Of a DNA stretch of 64,000 nucleotides, positions 5,570 to 16,303 are shown one piece after another. Positions within the stretch are counted from its first letter, which is position 1; each line of letters starts with the position of its first letter. Source of the stretch: Vulcanimicrobiota bacterium. Lineage in GTDB: Bacteria; Vulcanimicrobiota; Vulcanimicrobiia; Vulcanimicrobiales; Vulcanimicrobiaceae. The notes below the pieces were generated by a model, which saw only the letters and a program-made list of their open reading frames with translations, ran no database searches and was not told the DNA's origin. The translations under genes and the position numbers were made by a program. The DNA lies in contig CAWHWQ010000002.1 of assembly GCA_963833095.1 (NCBI GenBank), positions 128,001-192,000 on the forward strand. The letters run 5' to 3'.

Positions 5570-6663
5570 ATGCGATTCTTCCGCGTCGTAAGCGCATCGA
5601 CCCGGGCGAGAATTGTCGTAACGGGATCGATTGTGCGAGCGCGCTCGGCTGCTGCGCGCAGATCCGCGAGACGACTGGGCTGCGTCACCTCGGCCAGAAT
5701 CCCGCGTAGCTTGCCGGCGATCAGCTCGCGATCGTCAACCACCACGGCCGCGCCCGCTCGCGCGACGGTGGCCGCGTTGGCGCGCTGGTGATCCTCGGCC
5801 GCGAACGGGTAGGGCACGAGAATCGCCGGGCGACCGGTGGCCGCCAGCTCGCCCAGCGTCGAGGCGCCCGCGCGCGCGAGCACCAGATCCGCCGCCGCAT
5901 AGGCGTCCCCCACATCGTTTAGATAAGCGCGAAGGGCGCCGCCGTTGTCACCCTGCGTGTGCCGGAGGGCTGCCTTCACTCGGTCGTACTCGTTTTCGCC
6001 GGTCACGTGGATCAGTTGCCAGCCTTCGGGCAAGCCGTCACTCTGGAGCAACGAGGTCAACGCGTCGTTGATCGAACGCGCTCCTTGGCTGCCGCCCATG
6101 GCAAGCAGCGTATTGCGTTTCGACGAGAGTCCCAAGCGCTCGATTGCCGCATCGCGTGACGGTAAGGTGCGTAGCGAGGCGCGCACCGGAATGCCGGTCT
6201 GCACGTACTTGCCGGCAAACCGCGGATCACCGCCGGGGAACGCGCCCCACACTTCGTCGACCAGCGGCGCCAGCAGCCGGTTGGTGAGGCCCGGACGCGC
6301 ATTGGGTTCGAGCAACGCGATCTTGGCGTGGATGCGTTTGAATTGACGCAGGATGCGCGCGGCAAGCACGACCGGCAGCGCGACATAGCCTCCAGTTGCG
6401 ATCACGATGTCGGGCTTGAGGCGGGGCAGCACGTTCAGCGCTTGAACGATGCCGGCGAGATTGACGTAGGCGCGTTTCGCGGGCGCACTCTTTACCGTGA
6501 TCAGCGGATAGCCGGCGTTCGGCACGATGGTTGCTTCAAGGCGATCGGCCGCACCGATGAAGGTGACGTTGGCGCGTTCGCCCAGCGCCTGCGCGATCGC
6601 TATGGCCGGATAGAGATGACCGCCGGTGCCGCCGCCGGTAAAGACGACGTTTAATCGATCCAT
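5566..6663 (-). CDS. murG: Undecaprenyl-PP-MurNAc-pentapeptide GlcNAc transferase
   Basis: GGGTGGHLYPA, TGGYV, GGSQGA, RAGASTLGE, HQRANA. Confidence 0.96.
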   Translation of the reverse strand: MDRLNVVFTGGGTGGHLYPAIAIAQALGERANVTFIGAADRLEATIVPNAGYPLITVKSAPAKRAYVNLAGIVQALNVLPRLKPDIVIATGGYVALPVVLAARILRQFKRIHAKIALLEPNARPGLTNRLLAPLVDEVWGAFPGGDPRFAGKYVQTGIPVRASLRTLPSRDAAIERLGLSSKRNTLLAMGGSQGARSINDALTSLLQSDGLPEGWQLIHVTGENEYDRVKAALRHTQGDNGGALRAYLNDVGDAYAAADLVLARAGASTLGELAATGRPAILVPYPFAAEDHQRANAATVARAGAAVVVDDRELIAGKLRGILAEVTQPSRLADLRAAAERARTIDPVTTILARVDALTTRKNRM

Positions 6664-8746: not shown

Positions 8747-10133
8747 CAGCCGGCGCTCGCATAGCCTGCACGGCCGCGGTAAACTGTTCGCCGCGATCTT
8801 CGGCCGAACGGAACATATCGAACGACGCGCAGCCCGGAGAGAGCAGCACCGCGTCGCCCGGCACCGCAAGCTCGCGTGCCTTCTGCACGGCGTCGATCAT
8901 CGAGTCCGCGTGCACGATCTCGATGCCCAATGCGTGGGCTGCGATTTGGTCGGCCGCTTCGCCCATAACCACCAGCGCCTTAGCGCGTTGGCGAATCGCG
9001 ACGCCCATTTCAACGAAATCGGTGCCCTTCGAGCGCCCGCCCGCAATGAGCACGATCGGCCGCGCGTAGGCATGCAGCGCGGCTACCACGGAACCAGGAT
9101 TGGTCGACTTGGAATCGTCGACGTAGAGCACGCCGTCGATTTCGCCCGCGCTCTCGAGGCGATGCGGCATCGCGCGGAAACTCATCACCGCTTCGCGCAG
9201 CGCGGCGGTCTCGCACCCGACGACGTACGCTGCCAACAGCGCAGCCATCACGTTCTGCACGTTGTGCGCGCCGGCGAGCGGAATCTCGTCTTTGCGCATC
9301 ACTTTGACCGGGCGTGGATCGCCGCTGATCGGCGCGTAGACGATATCGTCGCCGTGCACGTAGATCGTCGCGTTGTCGTGGCGATCGGCGAGAGTGAACC
9401 AAAGCTGACGCGAGCGGATGTTGCGTTCGCTGGTGCTGACGTCGAGCGAGGTCACGCGCCCGTCGTCGAGGTTGCCCACGAAGAAATCGCCGAATGATTG
9501 ATTGGCGAAGATGCGGTACTTGGCTTCCGCGTACTCGTCCATCGAATGATAGCGATCCAGATGATCCGGCGCGACGTTGAGGAGCACGGCGACGCGTGGT
9601 TTGAACGCGCGAATCGTCTCGAGCTGGAAGGAGGAGACTTCAGCCACCACCCAATCAGTGGTGCGCGCGTCGATCACTTCGTCGATCAGCGGGTTGCCGA
9701 TGTTGCCGCCCACGCGCACGCCGCGTCCGCTGCAGCGCAGCATATGCCCGATCAATGCGGTGGTGGTCGATTTGCCTTTGGTGCCGGTGACGGCGATGAC
9801 CGGCGCCTTGCACAACCGGAAGGCGACTTCAATCTCGCCCAGCACCGGTACTGCGTGGTTTTGCACCGCGATCACTACCGCCGAGTTGAGCGGGACGCCG
9901 GGCGAGAGCACCGCCGACGTGAGCCCGCCGACGATCGGTTCGAGTTGATCCGGTGCGATGAAACGCGCGCCGGTCGCCTCGACGATATCGATCGCGTCTT
10001 GCAGCTCGCTCGCCGGCTTTTCGTCGGTAGCATAGACGGTCGCTCCGCGCGAACGCAACACGCGCACGCAGGCAAGGCCACTTTTACCGAGGCCAATGAC
10101 GAGAATCGTCTCGCGCGCATCAAAGGTCATCAT
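8739..10133 (-). CDS. murD: UDP-MurNAc-L-Ala--D-glutamate ligase
   Basis: GLGKSG, SPGVP, GTKGKSTTT, GGNIG, EVSSFQL, DHLDRY, DDSKSTN, LSPGCASFD. Confidence 0.96.
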   Translation of the reverse strand: MMTFDARETILVIGLGKSGLACVRVLRSRGATVYATDEKPASELQDAIDIVEATGARFIAPDQLEPIVGGLTSAVLSPGVPLNSAVVIAVQNHAVPVLGEIEVAFRLCKAPVIAVTGTKGKSTTTALIGHMLRCSGRGVRVGGNIGNPLIDEVIDARTTDWVVAEVSSFQLETIRAFKPRVAVLLNVAPDHLDRYHSMDEYAEAKYRIFANQSFGDFFVGNLDDGRVTSLDVSTSERNIRSRQLWFTLADRHDNATIYVHGDDIVYAPISGDPRPVKVMRKDEIPLAGAHNVQNVMAALLAAYVVGCETAALREAVMSFRAMPHRLESAGEIDGVLYVDDSKSTNPGSVVAALHAYARPIVLIAGGRSKGTDFVEMGVAIRQRAKALVVMGEAADQIAAHALGIEIVHADSMIDAVQKARELAVPGDAVLLSPGCASFDMFRSAEDRGEQFTAAVQAMRAPAGA

Positions 10134-11089
10134 CGTACGAGAAACCATCCGGCTGCGGAGAGCACGAGCGAAGCGGTCCAAAAACGTGCCGTGACCTTGG
10201 TCTCGGGCCAACCACCGAGTTCGAAGTGGTGATGCAGCGGGCTCATGCGAAAAATGCGCTTGCCGCCCGTTGCTTTGAAATAGCCGACTTGCATGATCAC
10301 TGAAAGAGCTTCGGCCACAAACACGCCGCCGATGAGGATCAAGAGCAGCATCTCGCCTTCCAGAATAGCGATGCCGGAAAGCAAGGCGCCCAACGCAAGC
10401 GAGCCGGTGTCACCCATGAAGATTTTTGCGGGATGCCGATTGTACACGAGAAAGCCGAAACACGCGCCGATACCGATGAGTGCAGCATAGGCCGGCACGA
10501 GCAGGTCCATCGAAAATCCGACCGCCGCGAAGACGACGAGCGGCGGAATCATCGTCCCGGTCGCGAGGCCGTCGAGCCCGTCGGTAAGATTGACGGCGTG
10601 GATCGTCCCCGTGACCGCCAGGATGCCGAGCACGAGCCACAGCCAGTGCGGCACAAGTAACGCATACGTACCGGCGTGGAAGATCACGTCGCGCGGATAG
10701 ATCGCGGTGGTCGCGTCGATCATGCGCAGGAAAATGATGGCGACCAGTGCCGTTGCAAGCAACTTTGTGCGCGCGCGCAAACCTTGGTTGCGCCCGCGCG
10801 TGATCCCGAGCATATCGTCGGCGAAGCCGATGGCGCCACAGGCGAGCACGAGAAAGACGATCGGCGCGGCAAACGGCGCCGAGGGATTCACGAGCAAGAA
10901 CAGCATGGGTACGAGGAAGGCGATGCCGCCCATCGTGGGCGTGCCCGTCTTGGTTTGGTGCGACGCCGGCGCATCTTCATAGGCGTGCTGAGCAAGCTGC
11001 ATACGCCGCAGCAGCGGTAGCAGCAGACCGGCAACCGCCAGGGAGAACACGAACCCGATGCCACAGAAGATCGCGATCGTCGCTAACAT
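10130..11089 (-). CDS. mraY: Phospho-N-acetylmuramoyl-pentapeptide transferase
   Basis: KTGTPTMGG, AVNLTDGLDGL, PAKIFMGDTGS, MSPLHHHFE. Confidence 0.96.
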   Translation of the reverse strand: MLATIAIFCGIGFVFSLAVAGLLLPLLRRMQLAQHAYEDAPASHQTKTGTPTMGGIAFLVPMLFLLVNPSAPFAAPIVFLVLACGAIGFADDMLGITRGRNQGLRARTKLLATALVAIIFLRMIDATTAIYPRDVIFHAGTYALLVPHWLWLVLGILAVTGTIHAVNLTDGLDGLATGTMIPPLVVFAAVGFSMDLLVPAYAALIGIGACFGFLVYNRHPAKIFMGDTGSLALGALLSGIAILEGEMLLLILIGGVFVAEALSVIMQVGYFKATGGKRIFRMSPLHHHFELGGWPETKVTARFWTASLVLSAAGWFLVR

Positions 11090-11757
11090 TGCAGCGGGTT
11101 CTCCCCGGCGGCGCGCCACTTGAGCACCACGATCGGCGTTTGTTCGTCGCCGTTGCCGTGGGGGTTGTCGAGCAGCGCCTGTTCGACCGCGGCGCGATCG
11201 ACGCCGCGCGAGGCTCCCAGCACTTTAGCTTTGTGCAGATCGTTGGCATCGACGATCGCGCAGGCTACGCCGGTCACGGCGGCGATCGTTTCGCAGACAT
11301 CGTCGGGATCGCGTGGTGACAACACGATTGCGCGCTCGTAGGGCGGCATCGTTCCGGTGTAGCCGTCGATCGCGGCGATCGCCTCGCCCATCAATTCGTA
11401 GAATACGCCGCGCTTGCCAAAAACGCGGCCGACCGCATGCAGCACTGAAGCGAAAAACACGCGCCATGCGCCGACCTGATCGATCACGAGTTGGACGGAT
11501 TCGGGCTGACTGACCGTCGCGAGCGCGCCGGCTCGGCGCGCAAGCACGTAGGCTAAACGCGACGGGCGAATGTGCTCCGCCGCGACGAACTCACCTTGCG
11601 CGATGGCTACGGCTGTTTCGGAGATCGCGATCACGTCGCCAGAACGCGCGATGCCATGCACTGCCGCCGCGACGAGCACGCTAAGGTCGTCGCCCTCGCG
11701 CACGATGCGCGTGCGGACGGGGATTGCAACCAAACCGGGAATGCGCGTGGCCGTCAA
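11083..11757 (-). CDS. Coenzyme F420-0:glutamate ligase (CofE)-like protein, inserted between murF and mraY
   Basis: IPVRTRIV..GDD, GDVIAISE.AVAIAQG, AIDG, LSPRDPD, AIVDAND, DNPHGNGDEQTPIV resemble the short F420_ligase-like family; TTG start overlaps murF stop. Confidence 0.75.
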   Translation of the reverse strand: MTATRIPGLVAIPVRTRIVREGDDLSVLVAAAVHGIARSGDVIAISETAVAIAQGEFVAAEHIRPSRLAYVLARRAGALATVSQPESVQLVIDQVGAWRVFFASVLHAVGRVFGKRGVFYELMGEAIAAIDGYTGTMPPYERAIVLSPRDPDDVCETIAAVTGVACAIVDANDLHKAKVLGASRGVDRAAVEQALLDNPHGNGDEQTPIVVLKWRAAGENPLQC

Positions 11758-13133
11758 CGCCGTAACTCCTCGACGATTTCCTCTAACTTATATTTGCGCG
11801 AACCCTTGAGCAACACCGCGTCGCCGGCTCGCGCGTGATCGCGCACCCACCGCGCTGCCTGTTCGTTCGTCATGAAGGGCACGATGCGCTCCGAGGGGAG
11901 CCCTGCGCTGCGCGCTCCTAGAGCAAGCTCGCCCGCGAATTCGCCGCCGACCAGCATCACGTCGACCTTGGTGGCCGCGGCATGTCCGCCGACACGGCGA
12001 TGTAAGTCGGCCGCTCCCTCGCCAAGCTCGGCCATGCTTGCAAGCAGGGCGATATGGCGCGGCGCAGATTCGGCCGCAAAGGCGTCGAGCGCCGCCATCA
12101 TCCCGGCGGCGTTGGCGTTGTAGGCATCGAAGATCAAAACCACGCCGCTCTGAAGCGCGATGCGCTCGTAACGCCCGCTGGGCAATTCGATTTGCGGAAT
12201 CGCCGCGACGATCTGACGCGGATCGATGCCGTGCTCACGCGCTGCGGCGATCGCGGCTGCGAGATTGGCGCGATTGTGCAAGCCGGGAACGCGCGCGTCG
12301 ATCGAGTAGTTGTCGTCGCGGTCGCCGTCGATTTCGAGCCACTGCTGGGCGCCCGAGATCGCGCTGACGCGCCCGTGCATCGGGATGTCGCCGCCGACTT
12401 CGCCCGCAAAAAACCAATGCGAGGGTTTGGCTAGCGACGGCGCGCGGCGAATCGACGTGACGTCGCGCGCATTGAGAATCGCGCGCGCGCCGGTCGAAAA
12501 GAGCGCCCACTTCGTTTCTTCGAGCCGCTCGCGCGTGCCCATGATTTCCAAATGCGCATCACCGACGTTGGTAAGAATGCCCAGATCCGGCCGCGCGGCG
12601 CGTACCAGCCGCTCGATGTCGCCGTAGTGCCGCGCGCCCAACTCGATGACGAGCAACTCGTGCTTGTCGTTGTCGGCGGCTAGCAGCAGTTTGCTCACGC
12701 CGACTTCGTTATTCTCATTGGCGGGCGAGGCCAAGATGCGATCGCCGTAGCGCACGGAAAGCAGTTGCGCGGCAAAGGCTTTGGTCGTGGTCTTCCCCGC
12801 GCTGCCGGTGATCGCGAGCACGCGTCCGCGAAAATGCGCGCGCGCCACGCCGGCCAGATCCAAGTAGGCCTGCAAGGTTTCCTCGACCACGAGCGTGGTC
12901 GTGCCCGCAACGGCGGCATCGGGATCCTCGACGATCAAGGCTTTCGCGCCGCGCTCGACGGCTTCGCGTGTGTAGGCATGGCCGTCGAAGTGCTCGCCGC
13001 GCAGCGCAAGAAATGTTTGCCCCGGCACAATGGTGCGGGTGTCGCTCACGACGTCGACGTGCGACGGCGCCGCGTCGATATCGAGCACCTGCGCCTGCGT
13101 CCCCTTGACCGCTTCGTCGAACGTCAGCTTCAT
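11754..13133 (-). CDS. murF: UDP-MurNAc-tripeptide--D-Ala-D-Ala ligase
   Basis: DTR, GEHFDGH, ITGSAGKTTTK, NENNEVG, DAYNAN, MAELG, LLKGSR. Confidence 0.96.
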   Translation of the reverse strand: MKLTFDEAVKGTQAQVLDIDAAPSHVDVVSDTRTIVPGQTFLALRGEHFDGHAYTREAVERGAKALIVEDPDAAVAGTTTLVVEETLQAYLDLAGVARAHFRGRVLAITGSAGKTTTKAFAAQLLSVRYGDRILASPANENNEVGVSKLLLAADNDKHELLVIELGARHYGDIERLVRAARPDLGILTNVGDAHLEIMGTRERLEETKWALFSTGARAILNARDVTSIRRAPSLAKPSHWFFAGEVGGDIPMHGRVSAISGAQQWLEIDGDRDDNYSIDARVPGLHNRANLAAAIAAAREHGIDPRQIVAAIPQIELPSGRYERIALQSGVVLIFDAYNANAAGMMAALDAFAAESAPRHIALLASMAELGEGAADLHRRVGGHAAATKVDVMLVGGEFAGELALGARSAGLPSERIVPFMTNEQAARWVRDHARAGDAVLLKGSRKYKLEEIVEELRR

Positions 13134-14581
13134 GTTCGCGCACCTCGCGCGGCGAGCGCCTCGCGCGCAACGGCGACGTCATCGAAGGGCAGCGTCTGCG
13201 TGCCGATGATTTGATACGTTTCGTGGCCTTTGCCTGCGATGAGCACCACGTCGCCCGGCGCGGCTTCTTCGATCGCGCGGCGAATGGCGATCCGGCGATC
13301 GATTTCGGCCACATGCGGATGCGCGCCGATTCCGGTTTCGATGTCGGCCACGATCGCTTGCGGCGATTCACTGCGCGGATTGTCGCTGGTGACGTAAACG
13401 CGATCTGCAAACGCTGCTGCAATGCGGCCCATCTCCGGGCGCTTGCCGCGATCGCGATCGCCGCCGCACCCGAACACGACGGCCAGCTTGTGCGGCGTCG
13501 TTTCGCGCAGTGCGATCAGCGCGTTCTCGAGCGAATCGGGGGTATGCGAGTAGTCGACCACGACGTCGATATCCCCACCGCTGACGTGCTCCATGCGTCC
13601 GGCCACGCGCACGAGCGTATCGAGTCCGCGCGCGCAGGTATCCAGATCGATGCCCAGCGTGATCGCGACAGCGATAGCGGCGAGCGCGTTTTGCACGTTG
13701 AAAAGGCCGGGAAGATGCACGCGCATCGCCGTGCCGTCGACGTCAAATGACGTTCCCGCGGCGTCGGGTTCGACGTTGCGCGCGACAACGTCGGCATCGC
13801 CGCGCAGCGAGTAGGTCAGCGTCGGTACCTTGCGGCGCACTTCGGGGAGCCAACGCGCGCCGTGCTCGTCGTCGATATTGAGCACCGCGGCCTGGGTCAT
13901 GTGAAAGAGGCGATGTTTTGCGGCGGCGTAGGCTTCGAGCGTCTGATGAAAGTCGAGATGATCGCGCGTGATATTAGTCAACGCCGCGACGCGAAAGTGC
14001 ACGTCCTCGACGCGATCGAGGGCCAGGGCATGCGAGCTGACTTCCATGGCAACGGCCCAAGCCCCGAGTTCGCGCATCTGCGCGAGCAGACCGTGCAACT
14101 CGGGCGGCTGCGGCGTGGTCTGATCGAGCGTCCACGAACGATCGCGAAAGTGCGCGCCGACCGTGCCGATCACCCCGCACGGACGACCCGAGGTTTCTAC
14201 AATTGCAGCGATCATGCGCGTGGTCGTGGTTTTTCCGTTGGTGCCGGTGACGCCAAGCACGTCAACCGCGCGTGACGGATCGCCGTAAAAGGCCGCCGCG
14301 ATCACCGAAAGCGCGCGGCGCGAATCCGGCACGGCAATCGCCGTGACGTGCTCGGGCACATCGAGCGCGCGCGCTTCTTCCAAGACGACCGCGGTCGCGC
14401 CATTGTGGGCTGCGGCTTGGATAAAGGCGTGTCCGTCGGTGTGCTCCCCGGCAAGCGCAACGAACATCGCGCCGGGCGTGACCCGGCGCGAATCGATCTC
14501 GATGCTTGCAATCTCGCGCGCCGAGTCGCCGATGACACGCGTACTTGCGGGCAAGCGTGCGACGAGCTGCGCGATCGTCAC
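13130..14581 (-). CDS. murE: UDP-MurNAc-dipeptide--meso-DAP ligase
   Basis: DSRRV, GTNGKTTT, MEVSSH, DHLDFH, DYSHTPD, GCGGDRD; the DNPR motif indicates mDAP; GKGHE. Confidence 0.96.
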   Translation of the reverse strand: MTIAQLVARLPASTRVIGDSAREIASIEIDSRRVTPGAMFVALAGEHTDGHAFIQAAAHNGATAVVLEEARALDVPEHVTAIAVPDSRRALSVIAAAFYGDPSRAVDVLGVTGTNGKTTTTRMIAAIVETSGRPCGVIGTVGAHFRDRSWTLDQTTPQPPELHGLLAQMRELGAWAVAMEVSSHALALDRVEDVHFRVAALTNITRDHLDFHQTLEAYAAAKHRLFHMTQAAVLNIDDEHGARWLPEVRRKVPTLTYSLRGDADVVARNVEPDAAGTSFDVDGTAMRVHLPGLFNVQNALAAIAVAITLGIDLDTCARGLDTLVRVAGRMEHVSGGDIDVVVDYSHTPDSLENALIALRETTPHKLAVVFGCGGDRDRGKRPEMGRIAAAFADRVYVTSDNPRSESPQAIVADIETGIGAHPHVAEIDRRIAIRRAIEEAAPGDVVLIAGKGHETYQIIGTQTLPFDDVAVAREALAARGART

Positions 14582-16303
14582 GGAAGAACTCCCGCATGCA
14601 GCATCGCTTCGCGCGCGATCTTCACGAAGACCGGGGCGGCCACGATGCCGCCGTAGTAGGCGCCCTGCGGATCTTCGATCTTGACATAGATGACGTAACG
14701 CGGATGCTCGGCTGGAATCATGCCGATGAACGACGCTGCGTATGCTCCGGTCGAGTATTGCCCGTTGACGACCATTTGCGCGGTGCCGGTTTTGCCGGCG
14801 GTGGTGTAGCCCGGAATTTGCGCGACGCCTTTGCCGGTGCCGCCGGTCACGACCGCGCGTAAGAACGAGCGCAACTCAGCCGCAATCTTTTGCGAGAAGA
14901 CGCGATGCTCGACTTCGGGCGGGTAATCGTAGACGACTTTGCCGTGCTGATCTTCGATCGCCTTGACAATGCGCGGGCGAAGCAGCGTACCGCCATTGGC
15001 GATCGCGCAGTAGTAGCGCGCCATCGCAATCGGCGTTACCGAGACGCCTTGACCAAACGCCATCGTGGGCAGCGACAGTTCGCTCCACTGCGCGGGCGCG
15101 GGCACGATTCCCGGACTCTCGCCGGGCAACTCGACGTCGCTGACTTCGCCGAATCCGGCGTTGCGTTCCATGTCGTAGAAATTCTGTTGGCCGGTCGCAA
15201 GCCCGACTTCTGCCGCGCCGACGTTGTGCGAATACTCGACGATCTCTTGCAGCGTCTCGGTGCTGCTGCGCACCGGCATGTCGTCGTCGGCGTTGTGAAT
15301 CGTGTGGCCGTCGAGCGTCAGCGTCTCGCGCGCGGGGAAGCGCGTCTGCAGATTCACGCGACCCGAGGCCAGCGCGGCGGCGGCGGTGACGAGTTTGAAG
15401 GTCGAGCCGGGCTCATAGGTATCCGCCACGGCACGGTCGTCGTAATCGCGCGCCGGATATTTCCAGAAGTGGTTCGGATCGAAGTGTGGGACGTTCGCCA
15501 TGGCCAAGATCTCGCCGGTCCACGGATCCATCACGATCGCGGTGCCGTCTTTCGCGTGATACTTCGCGACTTCTTGATCGAGGGCTTGCTTCGGTGACGA
15601 ACTGCAGGTATGAGTCGACGGTCAATTCGAGAGAATACCCGGGCTGCGCCGCGCTCACCACGTGCTCGTGGCCAAAGGGAATCGGCCGTCCGAAATCGTC
15701 GGTTTCGAGCGTCACCTGGCCCGACTGGCCGCGCAGCAGTTGATCGAACTGGTATTCCAGACCGTCGAGCCCATTTTCATCGGTACCGACGAAACCCAGA
15801 ATCGTCGAGGCCATGTTGCCGACCATGTCGATGCGTTTTCCGGTCGGCTCTTCTTTGAGCGCGATACCGCCCATGTCGGCTTTGCGCACGCGATCGGCGA
15901 TCTCGACGGGGACCTTGCGCGCGATCCAGACGAACCAGATCGACTTGTCGTGCAACTCGGTGACGATCGCCGGATCGAGTTTACCGAAGATCGCCTGGAG
16001 CTTTGCGACGGTGGCGTCGGGATCGGTGAGGTCGTGCGGCACGGCGTAGACGCTCTCGGAGGGGAGAGAACGCACCAGCACCGTGCCGTTACGGTCGGCA
16101 ATGAATCCGCGCCGCGCAAAAACCTCGACCGTGTCGGAACGCTGTGCGAGCGCTCGAGCGGCGAGGGTTGGGCCTTGCACGACTTGGACGAGATAGAGAC
16201 GCGCGCACAGATACGCGCCCATCAGCGCGACCAGATAGAAAAAGAGTTTCGCGCGCATCGGTGCGACGCGCGCGAAAGCTCGATGATGGAGCGTGCGCGC
16301 CAC
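14578..16303 (-). CDS. ftsI: Class B penicillin-binding protein FtsI; apparent single extra base near 15590 splits the ORF
   Basis: N part RGFIADRNG, GLEYQFD, LTVDSYLQ; C part EPGSTFK, SHN, KTGTAQ; removing one base joins ..FVTE-QALDQEVAKYHAKDGTAIVMDP. Confidence 0.92.

Follow-up and report, generated by a model that had tools for sequence, protein, structure and literature searches.

Knowledge of peptidoglycan that bears polyamines goes back to the early 1980s, and current ideas on the tethering of the outer membrane in diderm Firmicutes give it a central place. Mutants in ompM are reported to show detachment of the outer membrane. A membrane-bound lipid intermediate:diamine transferase was reportedly described in Selenomonas ruminantium by Kamio and co-workers in the 1980s, and MurT/GatD and AsnB1/LtsA are cytoplasmic systems that tailor stem-peptide carboxylates on the wall precursor by nucleotide activation. 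Two papers on Negativicutes describe cadaverine or putrescine in amide linkage to the α-carboxylate of D-Glu, where it is needed for the binding of OmpM/Mep45 (PMC10628300, PMC5020339), and one of them presents wall-bound polyamines as a well-conserved feature of the group (PMC5020339). A full-text search, with most subscription journals outside its coverage, found no paper that names the polyamine-ligating enzyme or ties PF01996 proteins to peptidoglycan. The subject here is a gene of CofE fold that lies between murF and mraY in a division and cell wall (dcw) cluster, at 11083..11757 on the minus strand of a stretch of 64,000 nucleotides from a Vulcanimicrobiota bacterium (assembly GCA_963833095.1, contig CAWHWQ010000002.1, positions 128,001 to 192,000). 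This whole stretch is called the window.

The gene product is very probably a wall-precursor enzyme unrelated to F420. This view draws on direct observations of fold, family separation, synteny, gene fusions, gene neighbourhoods, taxon distribution and residue conservation; the ligase activity itself, its nucleotide, the acceptor carboxylate and the amine are inferred. The initial annotation proposed a CofE-like amide ligase that acts on the stem peptide, possibly with a diamine, and this proposal gains support from the family tree, the missing F420 genes, the dcw linkage, the occurrence of the family in Negativicutes, and its operons with decarboxylase and Amidase_3 genes. That its reaction joins a diamine, in a nucleoside triphosphate-dependent manner, to a carboxylate of the stem peptide is given an even chance.

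Relationship to CofE

The PF01996 search proposed in the initial annotation gives a match at E 1e-14 (55 bits; cut-off 25), and the window protein has 1718 database matches at E <= 0.001, with identities of up to 94%. Given that score and that number of relatives, the open reading frame (ORF) is a real gene and not a chance frame of a GC-rich genome. The nearest database proteins, at 94% identity, come from metagenome-assembled genomes whose source names make them Baltobacteraceae-type Eremiobacterota. The name given to the matches is coenzyme F420-0:L-glutamate ligase, and a Protein Atlas search returned 'F420 ligase' clusters only.

The window protein passes the Pfam gathering score and has the three-dimensional fold of CofE, and it scores far below what is expected of a CofE: 37.7 bits against a cut-off of 180.65 with the equivalog model TIGR01916, and 35.1 bits against 274 with NF009809. 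An AF2 model built from a 32-row alignment has a predicted local distance difference test score (pLDDT) of 92.7 and a predicted template modelling score of 0.88. Foldseek places it with A. fulgidus CofE (2PHN, 7ULD, 2G9I) as the sole significant folds, at E 3e-11 to 8e-10. The model aligns to residues 1-225 of the CofE chain and ends there; about 25 C-terminal residues of CofE are absent, and with them Arg234. In A. fulgidus CofE the F420 head group is contacted by G153-C155, by F92, and by an Arg234 that the partner subunit stacks on the F420 ring (PMC10861534). As judged on Arg234 and the G-R-P-W-R stretch, the window protein does not keep these contacts: the tail that carries Arg234 is missing, and the G-R-P-W-R that follows the metal-binding Asp of CofE is replaced by N-D-L-x.

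By hhalign, the family matches an alignment of six true CofE proteins, all taken from other classes within the phylum, with a probability of 97.8 over 149 columns. In a quick maximum-likelihood tree of 113 rows, a branch with a support of 100 in the Shimodaira-Hasegawa-like approximate likelihood-ratio test divides these 6 true CofE from 107 family members. Thus, grouping with true CofE, the outcome that the initial annotation had set against itself, did not occur, as judged with a six-row outgroup from a single phylum. With so few outgroup rows, all of one phylum, any placement of the root within the family is tentative. Two members, L105 and L132, lie on very long branches because their domains were cut wrongly.

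Active-site residues were mapped by sequence only. Retained from CofE are the G-D-strand-helix element, the Asp of I-D (D131), and V-D-A-N-D (D170, N172, D173). HMMER aligns D170 and N172, within V-D-A-N, to I-T-D-T-N of A. fulgidus CofE, in a PDB profile search that covered residues 24-87 and a weak second stretch only. The metal ligands of CofE are presumably D109, D150, T151, and E208. Over 49 loci of the class Eremiobacteria (described below), 53 of the 224 positions are invariant, including D41, E47, D131, D170, N172, D173, N198, and T207; the acidic and amide residues that are conserved family-wide are invariant in all 49.

F420 genes in the phylum

The window assembly, which is 80.7% complete, contains one PF01996 match, the CofE-like gene itself. 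Neither TIGR01819 (cofD) nor PF01983 (cofC) has a match in this assembly, and its cofH-like radical-SAM matches all fall far below the cut-off (best, 126 against 374 bits). The initial annotation had noted that F420 genes are missing from the window and had pointed to their co-occurrence as informative; for cofC, cofD, and cofH the observation holds throughout the assembly. At C5:479069-482039 lie two neighbouring radical-SAM genes of cofH/cofG-like type, which score well under the CofH cut-off and are presumably mqnC/mqnE of the futalosine pathway.

Among 201 phylum genomes, 39 have a true CofE that exceeds its cut-off; among 131 genomes of families f1-f3, which belong to the class with the dcw-linked gene, none has. 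Of those 39 genomes, 38 also hold a CofE-like paralogue; the remaining one (G072) has a weak match only, at 2.8e-6. Where inspected (L051-L056, all from classes other than that of the window), the true cofE gene sits in cofD-cofC-cofE-luciferase-like operons. F420 synthesis is thus present in 39/201 phylum genomes, all of them outside the three families. A match to the window protein, by comparison, is found in 198/201 phylum genomes and in 131/132 of the three families when the window genome is counted. The phylum tallies of 198 and 39 include one unpublished genome, G128.

Linkage to murF and mraY

The gene encodes 224 residues and is coupled to its neighbours on both sides. Its TTG start (11757-11755) shares bases with the TGA stop of murF (11756-11754) as TTGA, and its TAG stop (11085-11083) falls inside mraY. 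Taking the ATG at 11089-11087 as the mraY start, the overlap is 7 nucleotides; with the GTG at 11119 as the start, it is 37 nucleotides. Both overlaps had been described in the initial annotation; they are seen in the sequence, and the strand is minus.

This arrangement is conserved across the class. A sample of 49 loci was drawn from families f1, f2, and f3, and in 49/49 murF precedes the CofE-like gene and mraY follows it, all three in the same orientation, so that the dcw linkage expected of relatives holds throughout. In each of the four g42 genomes (one genus), MurF reads through in frame into the CofE-like domain, uninterrupted by a stop codon, and a metagenomic protein of 736 residues (P0125) is a MurF-CofE-like fusion as well. 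Median identity to the window proteins over the 49 loci is 71.3% for the CofE-like protein, 54.8% for MurF, and 59.1% for MraY, and the CofE-like protein is more identical than both of its neighbours in 45 of the 49. From this conservation, the CofE-like protein looks like an enzyme under strong constraint. In other classes of the phylum the gene has a long form and is in a dcw location in 0/12 loci; ddl is nearby in two of these (L042, L050), and a phosphodiester glycosidase gene is present in L042 and L043. The dcw linkage is therefore confined to one class of the phylum.

Within the window, murF (UDP-MurNAc-tripeptide:D-Ala-D-Ala ligase; Pfam Mur_ligase_M, Mur_ligase_C, and Mur_ligase) lies at 11754..13133 and mraY (phospho-MurNAc-pentapeptide transferase; Pfam Glycos_transf_4 and MraY_sig1) at 10130..11119, both on the minus strand. 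A Shine-Dalgarno-like hexamer, GAGGAG, is found on the same strand at 11766..11771, within the end of murF and 8 nucleotides upstream of the TTG. A promoter and terminator scan of 9500-14000 gave nothing above shuffles. The whole cluster, on the minus strand, reads mraZ, rsmH, ftsL, ftsI, murE, murF, the CofE-like ORF, mraY, murD, ftsW, a DUF2332 gene, murG, murC, murB, and ddl.

Two other features of the cluster may be recorded. The ftsI gene (penicillin-binding protein; 14578..16303, minus strand) consists of two ORFs that overlap, 15413..16303 and 14578..15534. A frame change of one base near 15540-15560 separates them, which is either an assembly error or the mark of a pseudogene. The DUF2332 (PF10094) gene, at 6651..~7700 on the minus strand, sits between ftsW and murG.

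The family outside the phylum

A new finding is the wide occurrence of the family beyond the phylum. Among 1.84 billion representatives, 745 match at E <= 0.001, and many of these are long proteins that carry the CofE-like domain C-terminally. When a single genome was scanned for each species, a relative turned up in at least 579 species. Among the matches listed are Bacillota (Moorella/Neomoorella, Pelotomaculum, Thermoanaerobacter, Fermentithermobacillaceae, Limnochordales, and Dendrosporobacter), Cyanobacteria (Prochlorococcus, Synechococcus, Oscillatoria, Leptolyngbya, Kamptonema, and Gloeomargarita), Acidimicrobiia, and UBP9/Xenobia. Fusion partners recognised by Pfam are Amidase_3, AsnB-type glutamine amidotransferase with asparagine synthase, MurF, polysaccharide deacetylase, GNAT, adenylate kinase, and TPR. 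Fusions to Amidase_3 (N-acetylmuramoyl-L-alanine amidase) include P0136, P0140, P0152, P0153, and P0172; those to the AsnB-type amidotransferase are metagenomic (P0218, P0227, P0249, P0253, P0239), and the polysaccharide deacetylase is fused in P0217.

Neighbourhoods outside the class were compared by calling genes in 72 of 80 loci, clustering the neighbours and naming the clusters by Pfam. The gene calling was a greedy longest-ORF heuristic, which dropped 8 of the 80 loci, and 5 of 20 Negativicutes loci, where no ORF covered the match.

Three kinds of partner can be told apart, one of them being MurF and MraY in the Eremiobacteria. Of the other two, the first is a module of about 180 residues, modelled as one transmembrane helix followed by an immunoglobulin-like beta-sandwich (TM-beta; pLDDT 84.5). 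It is fused to the N-terminus of the CofE-like domain in 24 loci (all Cyanobacteria and Xenobia/UBP9 genomes) and is a separate, adjacent upstream gene in 5 Bacillota loci and 15/15 Negativicutes loci. The stand-alone and fused modules are homologous (BLASTP E 5e-6 over 162 residues), and Foldseek retrieves generic beta-sandwiches for the domain, which name no function. A profile of the module matched 12/12 long forms from the other classes of the window's own phylum; it matched nothing in the window assembly, and in 101 genomes of the class it gave one marginal match only (E 6.4e-4).

The second, met with in Bacillota, is an Amidase_3 protein of about 300 residues. It is fused to the family protein in 5/72 loci, and its gene is within 4 genes of 32 of the 43 stand-alone family genes, adjacent in 29. 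Counted together, Amidase_3 is adjacent or fused in 34/72 loci and within 4 genes or fused in 37/72. None of 15 Amidase_3 N-termini inspected (10 stand-alone and 5 fused) has a signal peptide or membrane helix; a sixth long form, L105, is not recognised as Amidase_3 and stands outside the 15. In 3 of the 10 stand-alone partners (Bacillota L077, L082, and L108) the DPGHGG zinc motif is degenerate. Because of the missing export signals and the degenerate motifs, these partners look cytoplasmic and partly reduced to binding.

Other neighbours recur in particular groups. The cyanobacterial long form (L114-L156) is in a conserved block of DUF3685, an slr1796-like photosystem I accumulation factor, the CofE-like gene, an unnamed protein of 359 residues, RuvX, DUF3727, and HAD. 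In the Fermentithermobacillaceae-type operon, proteins with S-layer homology (SLH) domains and M20 peptidases are frequent neighbours.

Polyamine genes and the Negativicutes

In Bacillota, genes for the supply of diamines are also found beside the family gene. An Orn/Lys/Arg decarboxylase (PF01276, the form of about 500 residues) is within 4 genes in 19/72 loci and a pyruvoyl-dependent arginine decarboxylase (PF01862) in 5/72; thus, 24/72 loci have one or the other, as do 23 of the 43 stand-alone family genes. The decarboxylase neighbours come in at least four arrangements. In one, the order is AAA-lid, VWA, decarboxylase, Amidase_3, family gene; in another, Amidase_3 is divergent from the family gene, which is followed by a decarboxylase and a MurJ/Wzx-like gene; in a third, a decarboxylase precedes the Amidase_3-family fusion (L148; the long form of L105 is, again, not recognised as Amidase_3); and in a fourth, a pyruvoyl decarboxylase is divergent from TM-beta and the family gene. 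Since these arrangements lie in different clades of the tree, the association with decarboxylases, from two unrelated families, arose or was kept more than once.

A further neighbour is a histone deacetylase (HDAC)-like gene of PF00850, a family that we take to include acetylpolyamine amidohydrolases. It is near the family gene in 4/72 loci, among them Moorella and Dendrosporobacter, and in 7 of 15 Negativicutes loci it follows the family gene, paired with a hydantoinase-like gene. The pair of hydantoinase/oxoprolinase-like and HDAC-like genes recurs beside the family gene in Negativicutes (L184-L203) and in L095, L096, L102, and L112. It may be a polyamine-processing pair.

The initial annotation had tied its proposal to taxa with polyaminated walls, and the Negativicutes provide that connection. 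The sample comprised 151 genomes that share their class with a Dendrosporobacter genome, which NCBI taxonomy places in the Negativicutes. A single family member is present in 148/151 (E <= 1e-10), and cofD was found in 0/151. In 15/15 loci the order is murI, TM-beta gene, family gene. The fuller order begins with a thioesterase, followed by murI (glutamate racemase), TM-beta, and the family gene, and often continues with the hydantoinase-like gene, the HDAC-like gene, rph, and rdgB.

Proposed function and alternatives

For the family as a whole, the evidence says that the CofE-like domain probably works on MurNAc-peptide precursors at the cytoplasmic face of the membrane, together with a supply of diamine. 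The family would thus be a large paralogous group of cytoplasmic CofE-fold enzymes outside F420 and folate glutamylation. By analogy with CofE, a free stem-peptide carboxylate, at best guess the α-carboxylate of D-Glu, would be activated at a two-metal site, with a nucleoside triphosphate as the phosphate donor, and the resulting acyl phosphate would then be captured by an amine. The amine would most likely be a diamine (putrescine, cadaverine, or agmatine) made by the genome's own Orn/Lys/Arg decarboxylase. A decarboxylase of this kind (OKR_DC, PF01276) is present in 96/101 genomes of the class, a tally that includes genomes G128, G358, and G365, and the window genome has one, after bioF, bioD, and bioB, so that a diamine source exists and the chemistry would be feasible there. 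The competing system of D-Glu amidation was not found: MurT_C, its mark, has no match in the window assembly.

For the class, the evidence says that the action is probably at the MurF/MraY step, because the gene is coupled on both sides, is found fused to MurF, and has lost the membrane partner. The Eremiobacteria enzyme has parted with the membrane-anchored beta-sandwich protein and is instead translated between MurF and MraY, or, in one genus, fused to MurF. Given the place of the gene between murF and mraY and the MurF fusion, the substrate is probably the MurF product, UDP-MurNAc-pentapeptide, or lipid I, before hand-over.

Several observations weigh against a diamine ligase, at least in this class. 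No decarboxylase adjoins the CofE-like gene in Eremiobacteria, the copy in the window genome being the one beside the biotin genes. The SLH domain was not found in the window assembly (80.7% complete), so the tethering logic of Negativicutes need not apply. The class clade is not sister to the clade of Negativicutes and Cyanobacteria, and putative substrate loops differ: position 56 is E in 22/49 and R in 22/49 class loci and mostly R in the rest of the family. Because of this placement and these loops, the amine or the acceptor may differ in the class. Both lysines of the CofE motif K-V-x-S-K-A-E-G-R are gone, the family reading E-x-x-V-A-I-x-Q-G-(R/E), and so is the G-R-P-W-R stretch after the metal-binding Asp; hence, CofE-style nucleotide binding appears not to be assured in the family. 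The distribution also has its exceptions, in that the family occurs in only 52/151 genomes of the cyanobacterial phylum and also in monoderm Clostridia (Moorella, Pelotomaculum, and Thermoanaerobacter), in which wall-bound polyamines are not known to have been reported. The counts, moreover, overstate the support, as genomes that are related do not count as independent cases. Finally, the full-text search found no biochemical or genetic datum on any family member. It is the lack of SLH, the placement of the clade, the differing loops, and a nucleotide site made questionable by the lost lysines that hold diamine ligation in the window gene at an even chance.

These same points bear on what else the protein might do. 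A stem-peptide ligase could add something other than a polyamine, either an amino acid, for example Gly, L-Glu, or D-Asp, or else ammonia delivered by a partner, to the α-carboxylate of D-Glu, the ε-carboxylate of meso-diaminopimelate, or the terminal D-Ala. CofE itself adds an amino acid, L-Glu (PMC10861534), the fusions to AsnB-type glutamine amidotransferases branch at the base of the family, and, in the class, the missing decarboxylase neighbours go together with class-specific conserved loop residues. Against it stand two non-homologous decarboxylase families that recur beside the gene in at least four gene orders, the near-universality in Negativicutes, and the HDAC-like neighbours; a ligase of this type is considered unlikely.

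Somewhat less probable again is that the protein is no ligase at all. It might have kept the CofE fold as a regulator or adaptor, binding the MurNAc-peptide and linking MurF with MraY in a metabolon, or be another enzyme, for example a hydrolase of modified stem peptides. The loss of both nucleotide-helix lysines and of G-R-P-W-R fits such a role, as do the MurF fusions, and the degenerate zinc motifs in 3/10 stand-alone Amidase_3 partners suggest that binding can suffice in this system. Yet D41, D131, D170, N172, D173, and N198, which are invariant in 49/49 class loci and conserved at >=90% family-wide, look like a typical metal-dependent active site, and the protein is more conserved than MurF and MraY; both points speak against this reading.

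A cofactor glutamyl ligase, whether a divergent F420 CofE, as the sources' name coenzyme F420-0:L-glutamate ligase has it, or a FolC2-type dihydrofolate/folylpolyglutamate synthase like the chlamydial COG1478 member CT611, which complements E. coli folC (PMC1971073), is highly improbable, given that cofC and cofD were not found in the window assembly, that true CofE is present in 0/131 genomes of families f1-f3 and elsewhere coexists with the paralogue, that the window genome has a canonical folC (331 bits; cut-off 162.65), and that the window protein ends before CofE Arg234 and has no folate genes adjacent.

Diamine ligation to the stem peptide thus remains the preferred function. A broader and more tentative reading, somewhat doubtful as a whole, joins it to the history of the family, which would be the peptidoglycan polyamine ligase of diderm Terrabacteria, placing on D-Glu the cadaverine or putrescine that is held by OmpM-type tethers. 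In such a history, CofE would have been recruited from this older, wall-related stock, and Eremiobacteria would have rewired the enzyme into their dcw operon, with the result that no precursor passes from MurF to MraY unmodified.

Implications and comparison with known systems

The family provides a concrete candidate for the polyamine ligation step, to which no gene was found assigned in the literature searched. If the candidate is correct, it would bear on the origin of CofE, which is called unclear in a review of F420 (PMC8498797). It would also correct the widespread annotation 'coenzyme F420-0:L-glutamate ligase' in genomes unable to make F420, an annotation that concerns Negativicutes, Prochlorococcus and other Cyanobacteria, Clostridia, and Eremiobacterota. 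A modified wall would then be predicted in Eremiobacterota; the phylum has a cultured member, Vulcanimicrobium alpinus WC8-2, which is diderm and thin-walled (PMC9758169). On the broader reading, this would amount to undescribed stem-peptide chemistry across a whole, globally abundant soil phylum.

The closest system in terms of reaction is the diamine transferase reported from S. ruminantium, which is said to join the α-carboxylate of D-Glu in a wall precursor to cadaverine or putrescine, the same reaction as is proposed here. No gene is assigned to it in the literature searched, and gene neighbourhoods are what suggest a link to the family. In the class of Selenomonas, the Negativicutes, the family is near-universal and is paired with a membrane-anchored protein, whereas the Eremiobacteria lack the membrane partner. 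MurT/GatD and AsnB1/LtsA share the logic of carboxylate activation proposed for the CofE-like protein. However, their folds, a Mur ligase with a GATase and an asparagine synthetase, are unrelated to CofE, and they add ammonia rather than a diamine; AsnB-type domains are, for their part, fused to the CofE-like family in some metagenomic proteins.

In terms of fold, the closest systems are CofE and FbiB's N-terminal domain (PF01996, TIGR01916; 2PHN, 2G9I, 7ULD), whose fold the window protein has in common. It differs from CofE in scoring far below the equivalog cut-off, in belonging to a separate clade, and in having lost the lysines, G-R-P-W-R, and the tail of about 25 residues; its family, moreover, occurs in genomes without detected cofC or cofD and in cell-wall gene contexts. 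Finally, chlamydial FolC2 (CT611, COG1478) is a CofE-family protein that was recruited to a ligation outside F420 (PMC1971073). FolC2 is encoded among folate genes and stands in for a folC that is absent, whereas the window genome retains folC and holds its CofE-like gene in a dcw context.

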